DNA of 64,000 bases from an uncultured Acidobacteriota bacterium (GTDB taxonomy: Bacteria; Acidobacteriota; Terriglobia; UBA7540). A model generated the notes under the pieces. That model was not told the origin of the DNA. It did no database searches and worked only from the letters and a program-made list of their open reading frames with translations. Below, one piece after another: positions 5,453 through 54,935 of the stretch. The position numbers and the translations under genes were made by a program. The stretch spans positions 1,280,001-1,344,000 of the forward strand of contig CAWDSK010000006.1 in assembly GCA_963804995.1 (NCBI GenBank), in the 5' to 3' direction. Each line of letters opens with the position of its first letter. Positions within the stretch are counted from its first letter, which is position 1.

Positions 5453-6535
5453 ATGGACATGCCCGACACCCTCAAATCTCCTTTAGCCGATTACCATGCA
5501 TCACAGGGCGCTACGCTCGCGGAATATCACGGTGCGATAGTTCCCGCGCGCTTCACGGACCCCGCCGCCGAGCATCGCGCGGTGCGTGACGCCTCCGGAC
5601 TATTCGATTTTTCCTTCCGCGCCAAGTTCCGCATGAAAGGCCGCGACCATGCGCGCTTTCTGCAGCGCCTGGTCTCAAACAACGTCAAGAAGCTGACCCC
5701 GGGCCAGGGCACTTACGCCACGCTCTTGAACGCTCAGGGACACATCCTGGTTGACCTGCGCCTGCATTGCGCCGAAGACAGTTTCCTGGTCGACACCGAC
5801 GCCGACTTGCGCGATAAGGCCATCCAAATTTTCCGGCGTTACATCGTTGCCGATCAAGTCGAGATTGAGCCGCTCAACCTCTTCACCCTGGCGTTTCAGG
5901 GGCCAAGCGCGCTGCACCTGCTCGAGAAGACCCTGCACATCGACCTGCCCGCGATGCAGGAGTTCGACCACTTTGCAGCGAACTACGCGGGCTTCCCCAT
6001 CCGCGTCGTGCGTGCCTCGAGCACCGGCGAAGAAGGCTATGAAGTTTGGGTGGGCGCTCAAGGGATGGAAGCCGTGTGGGGCGCGGCGTGTGGACAGGCG
6101 CCGACCTATGGGACGCTGCCTTGCGGGTGGGAGGCGCTGGAGAGTCTGCGCATCGAGGCCGGCATTCCCCGCTACGGACAGGAGTTGGGCGAGGACGTGA
6201 TTCCGCTCGAAGCCGGGCTGCTGAATGCTCTTAGCTTCAACAAGGGTTGCTACATCGGGCAGGAAATCGTGGAGCGCGCGCGCAGCCGCGGCCACGTGAA
6301 TTGGAAACTAATGGGATTGGTCATGGAATCCGGGCCGCCTCCCCAGCCTGGCGAGAAGGTCGTGGTGGAAGGAAGAGAAGTGGCGGAGATCACCAGTTCC
6401 TGCGTTTCACCTACGCTCGGTAAGGCGATTGCCCTCGCTTACGTGCGCCGCGAAGTATCAGAACCCGGCGCGAAGATTACCTTTGCGTCAGGCGTGGAGG
6501 CGGAAGTCGCCGCGCTGCCCTTCGCTAGGGGCTAG
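5453..6535 (+). CDS. YgfZ/GcvT-family folate-binding protein
   Basis: KGCYIGQEIVER YgfZ signature, TGEEGYE, LRIEAG. Confidence 0.9.
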   Translation: MDMPDTLKSPLADYHASQGATLAEYHGAIVPARFTDPAAEHRAVRDASGLFDFSFRAKFRMKGRDHARFLQRLVSNNVKKLTPGQGTYATLLNAQGHILVDLRLHCAEDSFLVDTDADLRDKAIQIFRRYIVADQVEIEPLNLFTLAFQGPSALHLLEKTLHIDLPAMQEFDHFAANYAGFPIRVVRASSTGEEGYEVWVGAQGMEAVWGAACGQAPTYGTLPCGWEALESLRIEAGIPRYGQELGEDVIPLEAGLLNALSFNKGCYIGQEIVERARSRGHVNWKLMGLVMESGPPPQPGEKVVVEGREVAEITSSCVSPTLGKAIALAYVRREVSEPGAKITFASGVEAEVAALPFARG

Positions 6536-6668
6536 GCCTCTGGAAAGACCGAAAATCGAAACTCGAAAATCGAAACTCGCGAGTTCCCTTACTTCCCGAG
6601 CTGGGGACGAGGGAGTAGTGGCGATTTTCGAATTTCGATTTTCGATTCCCGGCCCTGACGCCTGCAAT

Positions 6669-41637: not shown

Positions 41638-41776
41638 AAAAGCCCTGCGCCAGCCGGCCGTCGGCGAGCAGGTTTATGTTGCAGACTTTCCTCGCCCCTG
41701 ATACAAAATGCCGGGCAGGTCAGGGTCATTTCCGTTCGCGGACACAAGCCACATCCACGTTGACGAAAGGAGTTCT

Positions 41777-43381
41777 ATGCTGACGAAAATAAGCCTCGCG
41801 ATTCTCACGCTTGCTGCCGGCCGTGGTGTAGCCGCGCCAGGGAACGCGCGCCCGCTGGCACTGGAAGATTACTACCGTCTCGTCGCCGTCATGTCACCGG
41901 CGATGTCGCCGGACGGGCGCTGGGTCGCTTTCATCAAATCGACCATTGTCGTGGCTGAGAACCGCCGCCAAAATGAATTGTGGCTGGTGGCAAGTGACGG
42001 GAGCACGCCACCCCGCCGCTTGTCCGATCCCTCGCTCAACGTCGCAAGTCCGCGTTGGAGCCCGAACGGAAAACTGCTCGCCTTTGCCGGCAGGCCCCGC
42101 TTTCGGCCGGCTTCAGGTGACGAGGGCGCTGCCATCTGGTTCTTGCGCATGGACCAGCCGGAGGCTGTGCCGTTCCACGTGCGGGGGGTTGGCGGCGTGC
42201 CGATCTTCAGCCCGGACAATCGCTGGATCGCCTTCACGCGCCGCGCCGCCCAACCCAAACCGCCGCAATACGCAAATGACCGGGAGCGCGTCATCCGCGA
42301 GCGTTTCCAGGGGCACGCCTATGATTGGATGAATGCCCGAGCGGACCAAATCGGCTATCTTCCCGACCCGCGCGATCCTGAGGCTTCGCCCGCCGAGGAG
42401 CTGTTCATCGTCTCGAGCGAAGGTGGCGAGCCGCGGCAACTGACGCATCTCGATGTCAACGTGCGGGGCGTAGCGTGGCGGCCTGACTCCGGAGCGCTCG
42501 CTTTCAGCGCCGACACCCACCAGCGCGATGAGTACAGCTATGAGCGCGCCGATCTGTTTGTAGTCGCGCTCGATGGCAAGGTCGAGCGGCTGACGGACGA
42601 TGGTTACAACAACGAGTCACCCGCCTGGTGGCCCGATGGGCGAACCCTCTGCTTCCGCCGCCAACTGGGATTGAGTGCCGTGATTGCCGCAAAGCAAAAC
42701 CACGGGGCGCCGGTGGATATCTACACAATCCCCGCAAATGGCGGGACAATGCAGAACCTTACGGCCGATTGGGATCTCCTGCCCGGCCCGCCGAACTTGA
42801 GTCCTGACGGCAGCTTCGTTTATTTCAGCGGGGGGATCGAAGGGAATGAGCATCTGTTTCGAGTGCCGTCCGGCAGATAACCCACGGTGACCGGCGGCTT
42901 ACGGGGTTCAGCCCTTCCGGGAATTACGGGACGATGGCCTTTGTCGCGACGGACAGCGCGCATTCGGATGAGCTGTTCGTGTCGGCGCTGGATGGCGGCA
43001 ACGAAAAGCAAGTCACGACGTTCAACCGGGCGCTGATGCAGGAGGTCCAACTCGCTTCCGCCGAGCGCATTCTCTTCCCGAGTAAGGATGGCACGCAGAT
43101 TGAAGGATGGGTACTCAAGCCTCGCGGGTACGATCCGGCGCGAAGTTGGCCACTGATCGTGACCATTCATGGCGGGCCGCACGGCGCCTTCGGTAACGAC
43201 TTCTCCTTTGAGCATCAGTTGTTGGCCGCGCACGGTTACCTGGTGGTCTACACGAATCCGCGCGGCTCGGCGACTTACGGAGAGAAGTTCCTTTGGGCCA
43301 CGTGGGGCGACTGGGGAAATCTCGACTATGCAGTGGTTCCACCGTTATCTGGAAAGTGCGGCGAGCGGAACGACGCAGTGA
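41777..43381 (+). pseudogene. S9 (prolyl oligopeptidase/DPP) pseudogene
   Basis: PD40 repeats and IHGGP present; frameshift near 42873; catalytic GxSxG/D/H missing; the native-like end QWFHRYL follows directly out of frame. Confidence 0.85.
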
Positions 43382-43716
43382 AGGGTTGGACAGAGAAATT
43401 CGCATCATGACGATTTAGGGGGTGACCCTCGGGTTTTAGTGGGACGTCGCGCGCTATACCGCGCGGAGCGCAACTTCTGGGACACGGCGCGCCTGGAAGC
43501 TCCTGCGCAGCAGAGGGACAAAATGTCGCAGCCAGGCGTCTCGGAGGTTCAGGGGAGTATCTCTGCCCATCACGCCTCATCTCGCCTCATGAACCCCCAC
43601 ACCTATCTTGTAAAGCGCACGTCATGAGGCTAACGGCAGAGGCCAAACGCCGGGTGCCACTCAACACCACCTTCTGCTACAATGCCGCCGAGCTTCCTGA
43701 CTGCTTCGCTGGCCGG

Positions 43717-50130: not shown

Positions 50131-50281
50131 CTCTAGCGAAACACCCCAGCAGAATTGGCCCATCCCGCTAACTCCTCAAGTTTGATTTCTTATTCAAACG
50201 CAAAGTCGTATATAAATACGGGGACACCATCTGTGTATTCTTTTGAGCAGTGAATCACAGGAGACAGGAAGCATCGGTGTT

Positions 50282-50770
50282 ATGGCCGAACGTCCGCCAC
50301 TCAAATTGCTAATTTCAGACCTCGCCAAGCTACTGGACTGGTTTGAAAAGAATTTGTGCAATCCGTGCCTTAAAGACCCGCGTGGGCATCAGGTCAAGTT
50401 TGATTGCAGTCGCTTCGCCTACATGATCAAGCTGGTAAGCTCCACTGGAGGCAAGGTTGCCAAGCCTTTAAAGATAGCGGACAAAATCAGAGCCGGGAAA
50501 AGGAGCAATGCAGATTTTGGGGGGTTCGATGCGGAACGGGCGCAGACGCTTTCTTGGATACCTTCGATAATCCTCCGTCCGACGATCATTGCGCGAAATA
50601 AGTCCTTGTTGGTCCCAGGCGACGAGCTTTATGTAAAAGAATTTGACAAGGCAGGCTACAAATACAAGGTTCTTTATTGTAAGAGAATGTCGCCGAACCT
50701 ACTTATTCCAATTTCGTCGTTCCCAAGGGAAAAGTTAGGAGCCCTTAACTCAGACATTATATGGCCATGA
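50282..50770 (+). CDS. PBECR-like (barnase/EndoU/colicin/RelE fold) putative RNase
   Basis: DPRG..V.F, ERAQTLSWIPSIILRPTII, YVKEF, ISSF, IIWP pattern; AT-rich; start 50282 or 50243. Confidence 0.65.
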   Translation: MAERPPLKLLISDLAKLLDWFEKNLCNPCLKDPRGHQVKFDCSRFAYMIKLVSSTGGKVAKPLKIADKIRAGKRSNADFGGFDAERAQTLSWIPSIILRPTIIARNKSLLVPGDELYVKEFDKAGYKYKVLYCKRMSPNLLIPISSFPREKLGALNSDIIWP

Positions 50771-50805
50771 AAACAAAAAGGTTGCCGACTTTTGATCGAC
50801 AACCT
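50771..50805 (-). terminator. Intrinsic terminator on the minus strand
   Basis: AGGTTGTCGA/TCGGCAACCT stem (G-U pair only on minus) followed by TTTTGTTT. Confidence 0.75.
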
Positions 50806-50882
50806 CTTTGGTTCCTTATTATACCCAGGAACAACGGGGGAAGCCGAGTGCGACTCGGCAAGATCTTTCAATCGGCACTTAC
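50771..50882 (-). ncRNA. Putative ~110-nt structured small RNA convergent with the nuclease gene
   Basis: Minus-strand promoter, two hairpins and an intrinsic terminator; no convincing ORF. Confidence 0.6.
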
Positions 50883-50888
50883 ATAACT

Positions 50889-50918
50889 ATCTTAAGACTA
50901 AGCCGGTTGGTTTGTCAA
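50889..50918 (-). promoter_or_regulatory. Sigma70 promoter for the small RNA
   Basis: TTGACA-18 bp-TAAGAT on the minus strand. Confidence 0.65.
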
Positions 50919-51065
50919 CAATACTCCTGACAATTAAACTTGGTTAGTCATATGCACCAAATTCGCGGCGCGGGGGAACTAGCACCTTGATCGGGTCAAC
51001 GCTCGGGTAAATCCTTTTGAGACCGATGCCAGAATGCCCCAAGTTTCTTTTGCTTGAGGATTTAG

Positions 51066-52198
51066 GTGAAAATGGCCAAAACTTTTCTATCTGCCGCCGC
51101 AATCGTATGCCTGCTTCTGACGGCGCTGTGCGATGCGCCGGTCTTCCCTGCTCGCCTTCCCGGCTCCGGCGCTGGCGTGGACGCTGCCGCCGACGCCGCG
51201 GCCCTGATCCATGCCGGCCACTGGAAGCGAGCGCGGGCGGCTCTCGAACCTGAAGTCCAAGCCCATCCCCAGGACGCTCCACGCTTGTACTTGCTCGCGC
51301 AAGTGAAAATGGCGTTCCAGCAGTTCGACGCGGCCCTGCCGCTTGCGCAGCATGCCGTCGAGCTCGAACGGCAAGGATTCCAACTACCACCTGAAATTGG
51401 GCCAGGTCTACGGGCAAATGGCGGCGCGGGCCAACATCTTCGCGGCCGGACCGCTGGCGGTGAAATTCCGCAAAGAGGTGGAAATTGCGCTCGAGCTCGA
51501 ACCCGCAAAACCTGGAAGCACTGGACTCCATGATGCAGTTCAAGTTTCAGGCCCCCGGCTTGATGGGCGGAGACAAGAATCAGGCGCGCGCGCTCGCCGA
51601 TACGATTACGCGTCTCAATCCCAGTGAGGGCTATCTCTCCCGAGCGAAATTGGCGGAACTTGAAAAAAACCCGGCAGAGGTCGAAGGCGATTATCTAAAG
51701 GCAGTCGAAGCCGGCCCCAGGAACTACGGCGCGCTCACCGCGCTCGCGAAGTTTTACAGTCACGCTCCCCCTGCCAAGTATGAATTGGCGGTGAAGAACG
51801 CCCAGCAGGCCGTGGAGATTGATCCCCTGCGCGTCGAAGCGTACTGGATTCTGGCGCGCTTGTTTGCCTTGCAGGAACGCTGGAACGATCTCGATTCGTT
51901 GCTCGGCGCGGCTGAAGAAAAGGTTCCGGATGACCTGCGACCCTACTACGAAGCTGCGAACGCCCAGCTTGAAACCGGCAAGGATCTTCCCCGGGCGGAG
52001 AAATACGCGAAGAAATATCTTGCCCAGGAGTCGGAGGGCGATGGGCCCGGCGCCGCCGATGCGCACCGCCTGCTGGGACTGGTTTCCGAGAAGCAGGGCC
52101 GCGTGGCCGAGGCCCGCGCCGAACTGGAAACTGCGCTGCGACTCAGGCCAAACTTCAAAGCTGCCAAGGAAGATTTGGCGAGGATCAACAAAAGGTAG
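51066..52198 (+). CDS. Exported TPR protein, split by two +1 frameshifts (~51368, ~51501)
   Basis: Three overlapping ORFs join into continuous TPRs (ELDGKDSNYH, ELDPQNLEA). Confidence 0.85.
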
Positions 52199-52381
52199 GC
52201 CGGACAACTCACCATGCCGGAACGCGGATTTGAATTTACAGCCCTCGCCCCTTTGGGGGAGAGGGTGGACCGCAACCGGCGTTTTCATCAGCCGGGGCGG
52301 GACGGGTGAGGGGGTCATTCAGGAACGAATTAAGAACCGGAACCTCAAAAATGAACACTATCTGGGCTCGTCAGGCAAGCC

Positions 52382-53064: not shown

Positions 53065-54935
53065 ATGCGTGAACCTTTTCTGGACAGGATCGAGAAGCAG
53101 GCGCTGGTCTGTGACGGGGCCATGGGGACGATGCTCTATTCGCGGGGCATCTCACTCAACCGTTGCTACGACGAGCTGAATTTGACCCTGCCTCAGGCGG
53201 TTAAAGAGGTTCACTTGGCCTACGTCAAGGCCGGGGCGGAAGTCATTGAGACCAACACCTTCGGAGCCAGCCGGATACGCCTCGAAAAGTTCGACCTGGG
53301 CGAAAAGGTTCGGGAAATCAACCTGGCGGGCGCCCGCCTGGCTAGAGAAGTAGCGGGCGAAGACCTCTACGTGGCAGGAGCCGTGGGCCCGCTGGGTGTG
53401 CGCTTGGAGCCCCTGGGCCCCACCTCTCTGGCAGAGGCGCGCGCGGCCTTTCGCGAACAGATTGCCGCGCTCGTGGAAGGCGGCGTCGACCTGATCATCA
53501 TCGAGACCATGATGGATTTGGGCGAAGCCCAGCAGGCGTTACTCGCCCTGCGCGAAGTGGGCCGGGTTCCGGTCATCGTGCAAATGACCGTGCAAGACGA
53601 CGGCAGCACGCCTACGGGAACCCTGCCGGAGGACTTTGCGCGCGCGCTCGAACGCAGGGGGGGCGGACCTCATCGGCGTCAATTGCAGCGTGGGTCCCGC
53701 CGCCGTCGAGGAGACACTCGAAAGAATTGCGGCGGTCACGGCGAAGAAACTTTCGGCGCAACCCAACGCCGGAATGCCGCGCACCGTGGAAGGCCGCAAC
53801 CTCTATCTGTGCTCACCCGAATATATGGCGGGCTATGCCACGCAATTCATCCAGACCGGGGCGCGCCTGGTGGGGGGATGTTGCGGTACGACTCCCGAAC
53901 ACATCAAAGCCATCAAAGCTGCGGTGCGTTCCCTGCGCCCCCAGCGCTCGCGCGCGGCCGTGGAGGTGGCGGCGCGGCCCGGCCGTACGCTTGAACCGGT
54001 TCCCGTCGCCACGCGCTCACGCCTGGCGGAGAAGCTGGCGCAACGGGAATTTCCTGTCCTGGTGGAGGTGGTGCCGCCCAAGGGATGCGACGCGAATAAG
54101 GAAGTCGAAGGCGCGCATTACCTGCTCGAGCAAGGCATTGATGCGGTTAATATCCCCGATGGGTCCGGCTCGAACCGCCCGCATGAGCGCGCTGACCGTT
54201 GCGGCCCTGCTCGAGCAGCGCGCGGGCATCGAGGTCCTGCTGCACTACAGCTCGCGCGATCGCAACGTGTTGACCATCCAGTCCGACCTGCTGGGGGCCC
54301 ACGCCCTGGGCTTGCGCAACGTTCTGGCCCTGACGCGCGATACCGCGCAATATTCAACGGTACTGGAAACGGCCGTTTCGGAAGTGGATGCTATCGGACT
54401 TGTTAATATCCTGAACAACCTGAATCGCGGCCTCAACATGGGCGGCAACCCGCTGGGCGCGCAGACGGCCTTCCTGGTCGGCGTCAGCGTCAACCCCTAT
54501 GCCCTGAACCTGGAGGAGGAACTTCGCCGCTTCCAGTTCAAGACCCAGGCAGGAGCGGACTTCGCCGTCACCCAACCCGTCTTCGATGCCGGGCAACTGG
54601 CGAAGTTTCTGGAGCGGGCGCGCAGTTTCGCACCGCACTTACCCGTGATCGCCGGAATCTGGCCGCTGACCAGTTTCCGGAATGCGGAATTCATGAATAA
54701 CGAAGTTCCTGGAATCTCCGTTCCGCCTGCGGTGATGGAGCGCATGCGCAAGGCCGATGCGGGCGAACGGGCTCGCCAGGAAGGCCTGAAAATCGCCCAG
54801 GAGACCTTGCTGGAAATCCGTTCGCTGGTCCAGGGCGTGCAGATTGCCGCGCCCTTCGGCCGTTACGCCATGGCTGTCGAGGTCGCCCAAGCTCTGGGCG
54901 TGCGCCGGGCGCAGCCGTCCGTCAGCCGCCCGTGA
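53065..54935 (+). CDS. yitJ: Bifunctional homocysteine S-methyltransferase/methylenetetrahydrofolate reductase, two +1 frameshifts (~53652, ~54174)
   Basis: DGAMGT, ETNTFGA, GVNC, QPNAG, GGCCGTTP, RDRN, TQPVFD, NEVPG spread over three frames. Confidence 0.9.

Follow-up and report, generated by a model that had tools for sequence, protein, structure and literature searches.

Introduction

Why would a small nuclease-like gene be followed, tail to tail, by a folded RNA that has its own promoter on the opposite strand? This question is raised by an AT-rich cassette at positions 50160-50940 of a 64,000-nt stretch (referred to here as the window) of contig CAWDSK010000006.1 from an uncultured Acidobacteriota bacterium. 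An earlier note on this stretch had proposed that the 162-aa product of the gene resembles PBECR2-type nucleases and that the convergent RNA is its ligand or inhibitor. After comparing the cassette with its homologs, we suggest that this gene of soil Acidobacteria and its separately promoted small RNA most likely constitute an RNA-antitoxin/RNase pair. Loci of homologs and relatives are designated below by L-numbers, and G000 and G065 denote the genome carrying the window locus (7.55 Mb) and a genome of the same genus, respectively.

Results

The gene and the RNA at the window locus

The gene (50282-50770, plus strand) encodes a putative solo RNase of 162 aa related to PBECR2, with a predicted colicin D-like BECR fold, as judged by homology and a fold model. 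Its start methionine is the same as in the homologs. The product is basic (pI 9.7; 28 Lys and Arg vs 16 Asp and Glu), and the GC content across 50160-50940 is 46%, well below the values of the window (59%) and of the genome (58%), which bears out the earlier description of a basic open reading frame (ORF) in an AT-rich patch.

On the minus strand, we located a TTGACA -35 box at 50913-50918 and, after an 18-nt spacer, a TAAGAT -10 box at 50889-50894, which would place the start of transcription near 50882. The predicted noncoding RNA of approximately 113 nt (50882 to 50770) begins with a variable 5′ leader, followed by the 7-bp hairpin P1 (GCCGAGU-CGC-ACUCGGC with a CGC loop, 50843-50859). A pseudoknot comes next. 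Its stem P2 (50824-50838) pairs CCC at 50836-50838 with GGG at 50824-50826, its stem P3 (50811-50832) pairs GUUCCU at 50827-50832 with AGGAAC at 50811-50816, and its A-rich loop L3 occupies 50817-50823. The RNA closes with an intrinsic terminator at 50770-50810 (hairpin and U-tract, 50774-50810; folding z -6.0) that ends at the stop codon of the protein. A G-U pair and the U-tract of this terminator are present on the minus strand only. The promoter, both hairpins and the strand-specific terminator were therefore found as the earlier note had described them. The folding z was -4.7 for the whole RNA and -1.0, no better than shuffled sequences, once the terminator was removed; therefore, the case for the RNA rests on comparison between loci. 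No relevant Rfam match was found for the window RNA, for 20 homolog loci at the gathering score, for 14 loci or for 8 distant loci.

No clear plus-strand terminator follows the stop codon of the gene, so the 3′ untranslated region (UTR) of its mRNA may overlap the RNA. As the earlier note had stated, the RNA does not run antisense to the coding sequence; however, the note set antisense control aside too quickly, given the possible 3′ UTR overlap and a precedent from Bacillus subtilis that is taken up in the Discussion.

Conservation, strand and covariation of the RNA

Homologs were retrieved at 51 loci from metagenomes and 7 from genomes, and viral contigs yielded none; all seven loci with a named source came from Acidobacteriota. 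Among the 59 loci including the window, five had a 3′ flank that was too short (L011, L019, L048, L049 and L051), and the remaining 54 represented 39 distinct 3′ flanks, with the anchor placed by hand in L018 and L040. The RNA core could be parsed on the minus strand in 39/39 of these flanks, always in the same order: leader, P1, short U-rich linker, CCC, stem strand, GGG, loop, partner strand and terminator. Thus, the comparison of homolog flanks that the earlier note had called for revealed a dedicated, conserved convergent RNA. A strict descriptor matched 36/39 flanks, compared with five places when both strands of the 7.55-Mb genome were scanned, one of them being the true locus; this descriptor was derived from the same sequences and is circular in that respect, while the genomic background was about a million-fold lower.

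The core sequences were sorted into type A (19, including the window) and type B (19 distinct), which were counted apart because a joint MAFFT alignment misaligned the pseudoknot. The type A RNA model found 9/20 type B RNAs, weakly and at the correct place. Covariation in type A was 0.253, compared with 0.149 ± 0.013 in shuffled alignments, and in type B it was 0.269 compared with 0.154; in neither case did any of 500 shuffles reach the observed value. Related sequences can beat such shuffles, and slid controls were also far lower. Compensatory changes supported P1 in both types. In type A, both sides had changed in four of the six P3 pairs, with 98% of cells paired; in type B, this held for 4/8 P1 pairs and 1/5 P3 pairs. 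P2 behaved differently, with its CCC and GGG strands invariant in 19/19 type A and 19/19 distinct type B sequences and a fourth G-C pair possible in 2/19 and 8/19, respectively. Because this stem never varies, the pseudoknot is backed by invariance and geometry rather than by covariation. The earlier note had regarded the pseudoknot as weak; its CCC/GGG stem proved to be the most conserved part of the RNA, although an invariant stem cannot covary. Single-stranded sequence was conserved as well as structure, with U..CCC, GGG and the loop adenines invariant. Additionally, U-CGC occupied the P1 loop in 14/19 type A RNAs (in the window, around 50843-50859) and was absent from type B; in L012, L014, L022, L057 and L058, an alternative drawing of P1 has a stem of 5 bp and a loop of 7 nt that resembles an anticodon loop.

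Three further tests assigned the conserved element to the minus strand. G-U pairs numbered 28 on this strand, vs 5 A-C pairs. A promoter score of at least 8/12 was reached at 34/42 loci, compared with 7/42 on the other strand and 3/26 further away, while shuffles led us to expect 3.4. A U-rich tail followed the stem on the RNA strand at 28/42 loci and on the gene strand at 4/42, counts that relied on automatic stem picking and are wrong in a few loci.

The protein family and its fold

The window protein had no Pfam match and remained below the curated cut-off of PF18810 (PBECR2), and PADLOC gave nothing convincing for it. A word-based search returned 26 relatives and an exhaustive search returned 60. 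Through these relatives, the resemblance to PBECR2 anticipated in the earlier note became clear: PF18810 was matched at E ≤ 0.01 by 12/53 aligned family members, its curated cut-off was passed by 2/46 scanned relatives, and the top ESM Atlas cluster consisted of 54% PBECR2 (score 0.92). A search of viral structures in BFVD gave a best E of 6.6e-4 (TM 0.54), and many of the named rows were phage polyvalent or MuF proteins. We conclude that the window protein is related to PBECR2 by these comparisons; RNase activity of this copy is putative.

The AlphaFold model (pLDDT 93.8) showed the order of elements pre-alpha helix, alpha helix and four-stranded sheet. Among 48,161 chains, the top 16 structural matches were toxin RNases or toxin-antitoxin complexes by title, with weak scores throughout (Z ≤ 4.5); they included BrnT (4.5), colicin D (4.3) and CdiA-CT (4.3), as well as RelE, YoeB, HigB and YafQ. 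No MazF/Kid-like chain was among the listed matches, all of which had a weak Z. Foldseek, which the earlier note had named as a check, returned nothing from the PDB at E ≤ 0.001 (best E 0.24); the top 16 structural matches pointed, with weak Z, to BECR/RelE-type RNases. A PDB sequence search with a 53-row profile gave nothing under E 0.2.

Across 92 aligned proteins, Arg86 was invariant, position 47 on the helix 42-48 was His in 51, Tyr in 21 and Lys in 17, and position 145 on the last core strand (140-149) was Thr in 76 and Ser in 5; positions 47 and 145 were assigned by alignment and secondary structure and not by residue-level superposition. The window protein carries Tyr47 and Ser145, and the replacement of the expected His suspected in the earlier note is thereby located. 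The gene is under purifying selection, with dN/dS values of 0.06-0.18 in six pairs and a seventh pair that was saturated.

The close family yielded no fused proteins of greater length (407-2000 aa), which is weak evidence. Profile comparison gave no significant match between the family and a MuF-fused PBECR2 domain (probability 5.5%). One PADLOC model of PDC-M04B was weakly matched by 5/53 relatives (best E 2e-6 over the models) and not by the window protein; our literature search found no paper describing PDC-M04, a PADLOC candidate.

Pairing of the gene with the RNA

Every intact gene with a readable flank had an RNA. The upstream regions of the homologs were not conserved. The RNA was almost identical between the window and L001, although 48% of synonymous sites differ. 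RNA-core identity followed protein identity with a rho of 0.76, compared with 0.06 and 0.15 for the flanks (561 non-independent pairs), and the RNA types clustered on the protein tree, requiring four changes where the minimum is three and the shuffled mean is 14.9. In L040 (903-1379), an in-frame stop at codon 100 interrupts the gene while the RNA and its promoter are intact; this is a single metagenome contig, and a sequencing error is possible.

Complementarity of the RNA to the coding region and the 5′ leader of the mRNA was at the level of shuffles (longest match 7.4 nt vs 7.3 nt, 33 loci), and no conserved small ORF was present in the RNA among 15 loci inspected. Neither a trans-antisense role towards the mRNA nor a small ORF in the RNA is thus supported.

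Reciprocal searches and other PBECR2 genes

Searching 151 genomes of the class with the type A RNA model gave two strong matches, both of them training loci, and five weak ones (E 2.6e-4 to 9.9e-4) that had no homolog nearby and were dismissed as chance. In G000, no locus other than that of the window matched both the gene and the RNA model. With the type B model, the 151 genomes yielded two matches. At one of them, L080/L085, the RNA-only search reached a distant gene outside the training set that passes the PBECR2 cut-off and has the same orientation. The other, L084 (7576-7638, minus strand), is a decayed type B RNA that has lost part of P3, has no visible promoter and lies behind a HEPN_AbiV gene of about 520 aa. 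We considered HEPN_AbiV as a general second partner and discarded it, since only this decayed copy was found at 14 AbiV loci. Because just one of the 14 carries the RNA, the L084 copy looks like an orphan.

Beyond types A and B, L086 holds a type C RNA (6480-6605, plus strand) facing a gene of the Lys47 clade inside an IS1-like element; it has the same element order with a different sequence and is known from this one locus of the clade. A second apparent RNA match in L086 (8469-8588) lies inside the IS1-like transposase region and was rejected. An independent Pfam search detected PBECR2 in 12/351 genomes, and 11 of these 12 cases were examined, with one from an unpublished genome left out. 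Six solo PBECR2 genes (166-195 aa) face a convergent RNA, which is type B in L080 and type D in L103, L106, L107, L109 and L110. The type D RNA is conserved and shorter, and it has its own convergent promoter and a terminator; both sides had changed in three of the five pairs of its 5-bp stem (5 sequences), and it has no Rfam match. Types C and D escape both RNA models, R1 and R2.

Two other arrangements were observed among these genes. In L111, L113 and L114, a PBECR2-like protein of about 108 aa has no convergent promoter and instead has an overlapping downstream gene (DUF2283 in L113, the sole one tested), which makes it part of an apparent type II-like pair using the related domain. At two MuF-PBECR2 fusions in Mu-like prophages (L104:1849-1945 and L105:1397-1505; the fusion was confirmed by Pfam for L104), a convergent promoter-like site (7/12 and 10/12) and a shared motif stand where an immunity gene would be expected; folding there is no better than in shuffles, and the arrangement is a lead only.

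Distribution and genomic context

The family is rare (4/401 genomes of the phylum), with one copy in G000. G065 has no DNA match to the cassette and carries the type D locus L107 elsewhere, and the genes that flank the window cassette lie on different contigs in G065. In the closest relative, L052 (86% protein identity), similarity is confined to 50226-50921, from 56 nt before the start codon to just past the -35 box, and the neighbourhood is different; the mobile unit is therefore the gene plus the RNA. Among 102 neighbours scanned, we observed IS1595 transposases (a cluster of five loci), IS1-like transposases, integrases (L028 and L031) and a coupling protein (L035), while many loci, the window included, have housekeeping neighbours only. 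Viral contigs contained no protein homolog, and the RNA patterns gave either nothing there or two chance matches within a phage coding region; plasmid and phage collections gave no match.

A tRNA gene with a UAU anticodon (ARAGORN) lies directly upstream in 6/58 loci and can be folded as an 8/4 allo-tRNA (L018:335-425, L019:2531-2621, L022:2879-2965, L055:4849-4933, L056:4348-4439 and L058:4855-4940); variants lie at about L020:1980-2066, L049:2330-2416 and L103:1347-1434, and the window has none. These genes precede His-type family members, often with an IS1595 transposase nearby. They match the allo-tRNA(UAU) of Mukai et al., who found it in Acidobacteria close to transposons and toxin-antitoxin systems (PMC5389517), and a link of the genes observed here to a tRNA-cutting toxin is possible.

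Upstream of the gene and in the same orientation, several loci also have an ORF of 150-250 aa that starts with a coiled coil and has no confident Pfam match (L008:1650-2318, L003, L010, L013, L056:4515-4958 and L086:7173-7937). L020 has DUF5343, and the window has no such gene. In the window, a plus-strand promoter-like site (TTGTCA-17-TAAACT, 50912-50940) stands back to back with the RNA promoter and possibly serves a TPR gene. Genes at 51066-52198, 53065-54935 and 41708-43410, one of them the TPR gene, are split across frames, which suggests assembly indels or pseudogenes; two of the split genes are presumably homocysteine methyltransferase-like and S9 peptidase-like. Because several nearby genes are split in this way, the assembly of the window may hold indel errors; the cassette sequence itself is consistent with L001 and L052. 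An abundant intergenic repeat of about 100-140 nt at 52228-52370, with approximately 45 matching copies in G065, is unrelated to the cassette.

Discussion

A putative mechanism

The features that we rely on are the gene and the purifying selection acting on it, its kinship to PBECR2, the structure and strand of the RNA, the tight pairing of the two and their patchy distribution. From these, we infer a putative mechanism. The gene would produce a small basic endoribonuclease of the BECR fold, related to PBECR2 and toxic when free. From the opposite strand, a sigma-70 promoter would drive transcription of one short RNA composed of a hairpin and an H-type pseudoknot, and this RNA would bind the protein and keep it off, as the ToxI/CptI or AbiF RNAs do for unrelated RNases. 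When the supply of RNA stops, through loss of the cassette or phage shut-off of host transcription, the RNase would be freed and would cut host RNA, probably tRNA, as in colicin D-like enzymes. That the RNA is a protein-binding antitoxin for a BECR RNase, type III-like in action, has in our judgement an even chance of being correct.

This antitoxin model accounts for why gene and RNA are strictly paired, why the tertiary-type structure and the unpaired bases are conserved, and why the short relatives have swapped to a protein partner. It also explains the asymmetry of broken copies, in which the interrupted gene of L040 is accompanied by an intact RNA while the orphan RNA of L084 has decayed and every intact gene with a readable flank has an RNA. 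The distant PBECR2 gene reached by the RNA-only search, the agreement between RNA and protein identities, the mobile contexts of some loci and the precedents among H-type pseudoknot antitoxins (PMC5086642) and the protein-binding AbiF RNA (bioRxiv 10.1101/2025.04.15.648962) speak for the model as well.

Several observations weigh against the model. The similarity of the fold to solved RNases is weak, with a best Z of 4.5 and a Foldseek E of 0.24. Tyr stands at the presumed catalytic His in the window protein and in 11 other distinct type A loci, and this clade may therefore be attenuated or inactive; for Mu gp30, an inactive PBECR was proposed to act by RNA binding (PMC5512222). P2 has only 3 bp and shows no covariation. 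Co-evolution of the RNA and the protein is imperfect, because a type B RNA also accompanies the L085 protein, far outside the type B clade, and because distant clades carry RNAs that neither RNA model recognises. Furthermore, neither mobile elements nor defence genes lie next to the window locus, and its protein has no convincing PADLOC match. Finally, the gene lacks a terminator of its own, so control by antisense pairing is possible.

Alternative explanations

A first alternative is that the RNA and the protein form a ribonucleoprotein, in which the protein (at least that of the Tyr47 clade) is not toxic alone and the RNA is a decoy, substrate, sensor or cofactor. The replacement of His by Tyr47 under purifying selection speaks for this idea, and the protein family goes with RNAs of several unrelated folds (types A, B, C and D), which recalls the 11 DUF3800 motifs (PMC5737381). 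The U-CGC found in the P1 loop of 14/19 type A RNAs, some of which can be drawn like an anticodon arm, speaks for it as well. However, the anticodon-like loop is absent from type B and type D RNAs, the same type A RNA accompanies both His-type and Tyr-type proteins, and an antitoxin accounts more simply for the either-or pattern of RNA and protein partners and for the asymmetry between L040 and L084. We regard the ribonucleoprotein as credible and rather unlikely. The missing plus-strand terminator leads instead to type I-like antisense control, in which the mRNA would read into the RNA gene, pair with the RNA over about 110 nt of 3′ UTR and be destroyed as a duplex by RNase III. The tail-to-tail layout, the excess of U-rich tails on the RNA strand (28/42 vs 4/42) and the B. 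subtilis systems with a 3′ overlap of 114-123 nt (PMC8464778) all speak for it. However, complementarity in cis is automatic, and antisense pairing alone would require neither conserved structure nor conserved single-stranded sequence, yet both are conserved; invariant unpaired bases, a pseudoknot and linkers of fixed length are left unexplained. Outside the 3′ UTR, complementarity to the mRNA also stays at the level of shuffles (7.4 vs 7.3 nt), and the toxins of the precedents are small membrane peptides (PMC8464778). Antisense control as the sole explanation is therefore improbable in our view; such action could add to protein binding.

Two further explanations seem to us very far from probable. 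The roles might be inverted, with the RNA as the toxin and the nuclease as its antidote. The loss of the promoter and of part of P3 in the L084 orphan fits an RNA that needed silencing once nothing opposed it, while L040 presents the reverse, keeping the RNA and promoter beside a gene with an in-frame stop (again on one contig in which a sequencing error is possible), and the 15 loci inspected hold no conserved small ORF in the RNA. Equally remote is the proposal that no separate RNA exists and that the conserved element works at the DNA level, in recombination or as the end of a transposon, or else serves the plus strand as a 3′ signal for readthrough or stability. Unrelated neighbourhoods, the lack of a transposase in the window and the confinement of similarity with L052 to 50226-50921 would suit such an element. 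In contrast, the pair changes (28 G-U vs 5 A-C) and the conserved promoter and terminator point to the minus strand, the stop codons vary among TGA, TAA and TAG, and no flanking direct or inverted repeats of at least 10 nt were found for the window.

Wider implications

Returning to the antitoxin model, a broader version would hold that BECR/PBECR nucleases have broadly recruited convergent structured RNAs of several unrelated folds (types A-D, and possibly one behind the MuF-PBECR2 fusions of Mu-like prophages) that replace protein immunity and inhibit colicin D-like RNases by direct binding. We put this version forward tentatively and consider it doubtful. If true, it would represent a third independent origin of RNA antitoxins, after ToxN with its MazF fold and AbiF with its HEPN fold, and the first known control of PBECR domains. 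To our knowledge, protein-binding RNA antitoxins are known for two RNase folds only. If the antitoxin model is true, a colicin D-like fold with a 60-nt hairpin-pseudoknot core, carried on a 0.7-kb fragment, would widen this class. It would also offer a first handle on PBECR domains, for which the searched passages of the literature name no inhibitor. Should the antitoxin model fail, Acidobacteria would still hold a family of structured RNAs that is uncatalogued and keeps to one protein partner.

Our literature search did not find an RNA partner of a BECR or PBECR protein, with most subscription papers and preprint supplements out of reach; none is named in the accessible parts of 10.64898/2026.08.28.747851, 10.64898/2026.09.22.753630 (Minerva), PMC11109978 and PMC5576092 (MuF). 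We conclude that the RNA family is real and matches no catalogued RNA family and that the pairing is apparently undescribed, in line with the impression of the earlier note.

Comparison with known systems

PBECR domains were predicted in 2017 to be RNases in phage conflict proteins (PMC5512222), and the characterised colicin-like members mostly cut tRNA (bioRxiv 10.64898/2026.08.28.747851). As assigned by alignment, the His and Thr positions of the family fall on the pre-alpha helix and the last strand, where the PBECR2/colicin-like BECR group is described to have them (10.64898/2026.08.28.747851). However, the described forms of PBECR2 are solo genes of phages or domains within their polyvalent or MuF proteins (PMC5512222; 10.64898/2026.08.28.747851), whereas the window protein is chromosomal and has Tyr in place of His.

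Among RNAs that accompany one protein family, DUF3800-I to -XI, drum, skipping-rope and FuFi-1 are similar in that they end in terminators, occur in either orientation and have unrelated folds (PMC5737381). The function of the DUF3800 motifs is unexplained, and the protein family is a different one (PMC5737381). The Rfam models of DUF3800, drum, skipping-rope and FuFi-1 did not match our RNAs at E ≤ 5 or 10 (window, 14 loci and 8 distant loci), and no DUF3800 was present among the 102 neighbours scanned. The cassette is laid out tail to tail like the type I systems txpA/RatA, bsrG/SR4 and bsrE/SR5 of B. subtilis, and its 3′ ends may overlap over about 110 nt; in contrast, those systems combine short membrane-peptide toxins with a base-pairing RNA (PMC8464778), while the cassette combines a 162-aa nuclease-like domain with a pseudoknot and invariant unpaired bases.

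In AbiF systems (HEPN), for example with RCd22 of Clostridioides difficile, a dedicated structured RNA neutralises an RNase of another fold by binding it directly (bioRxiv 10.1101/2025.04.15.648962), as we propose for the cassette. Both the protein family and the RNA nevertheless differ, as no Abi_2 or AbiD/F Pfam match occurred in 53 members and no Rfam match was found. The AbiF RNA lies upstream of its gene.

The type III systems ToxIN, CptIN and TenpIN combine a small endoribonuclease-like protein with a short H-type pseudoknot RNA with an A-rich loop, together with an intrinsic terminator and a mobile, patchy distribution (PMC5086642), and the predicted features of the cassette are comparable. 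The geometry of our RNA fits an H-type pseudoknot, with a covarying P3 and an invariant P2 of 3-4 bp, and types C and D differ. The toxins of type III systems have the MazF/Kid/CcdB fold (PMC5086642), whereas the window protein appears BECR-like by weak fold scores. Moreover, type III antitoxins are upstream tandem repeats in the same operon (PMC5086642), whereas the RNA described here is a single copy that lies downstream on the opposite strand, has a promoter of its own and includes an additional hairpin. Therefore, judging from sequence, the cassette may work in the manner of type III systems while standing outside the ToxIN, CptIN and TenpIN families.

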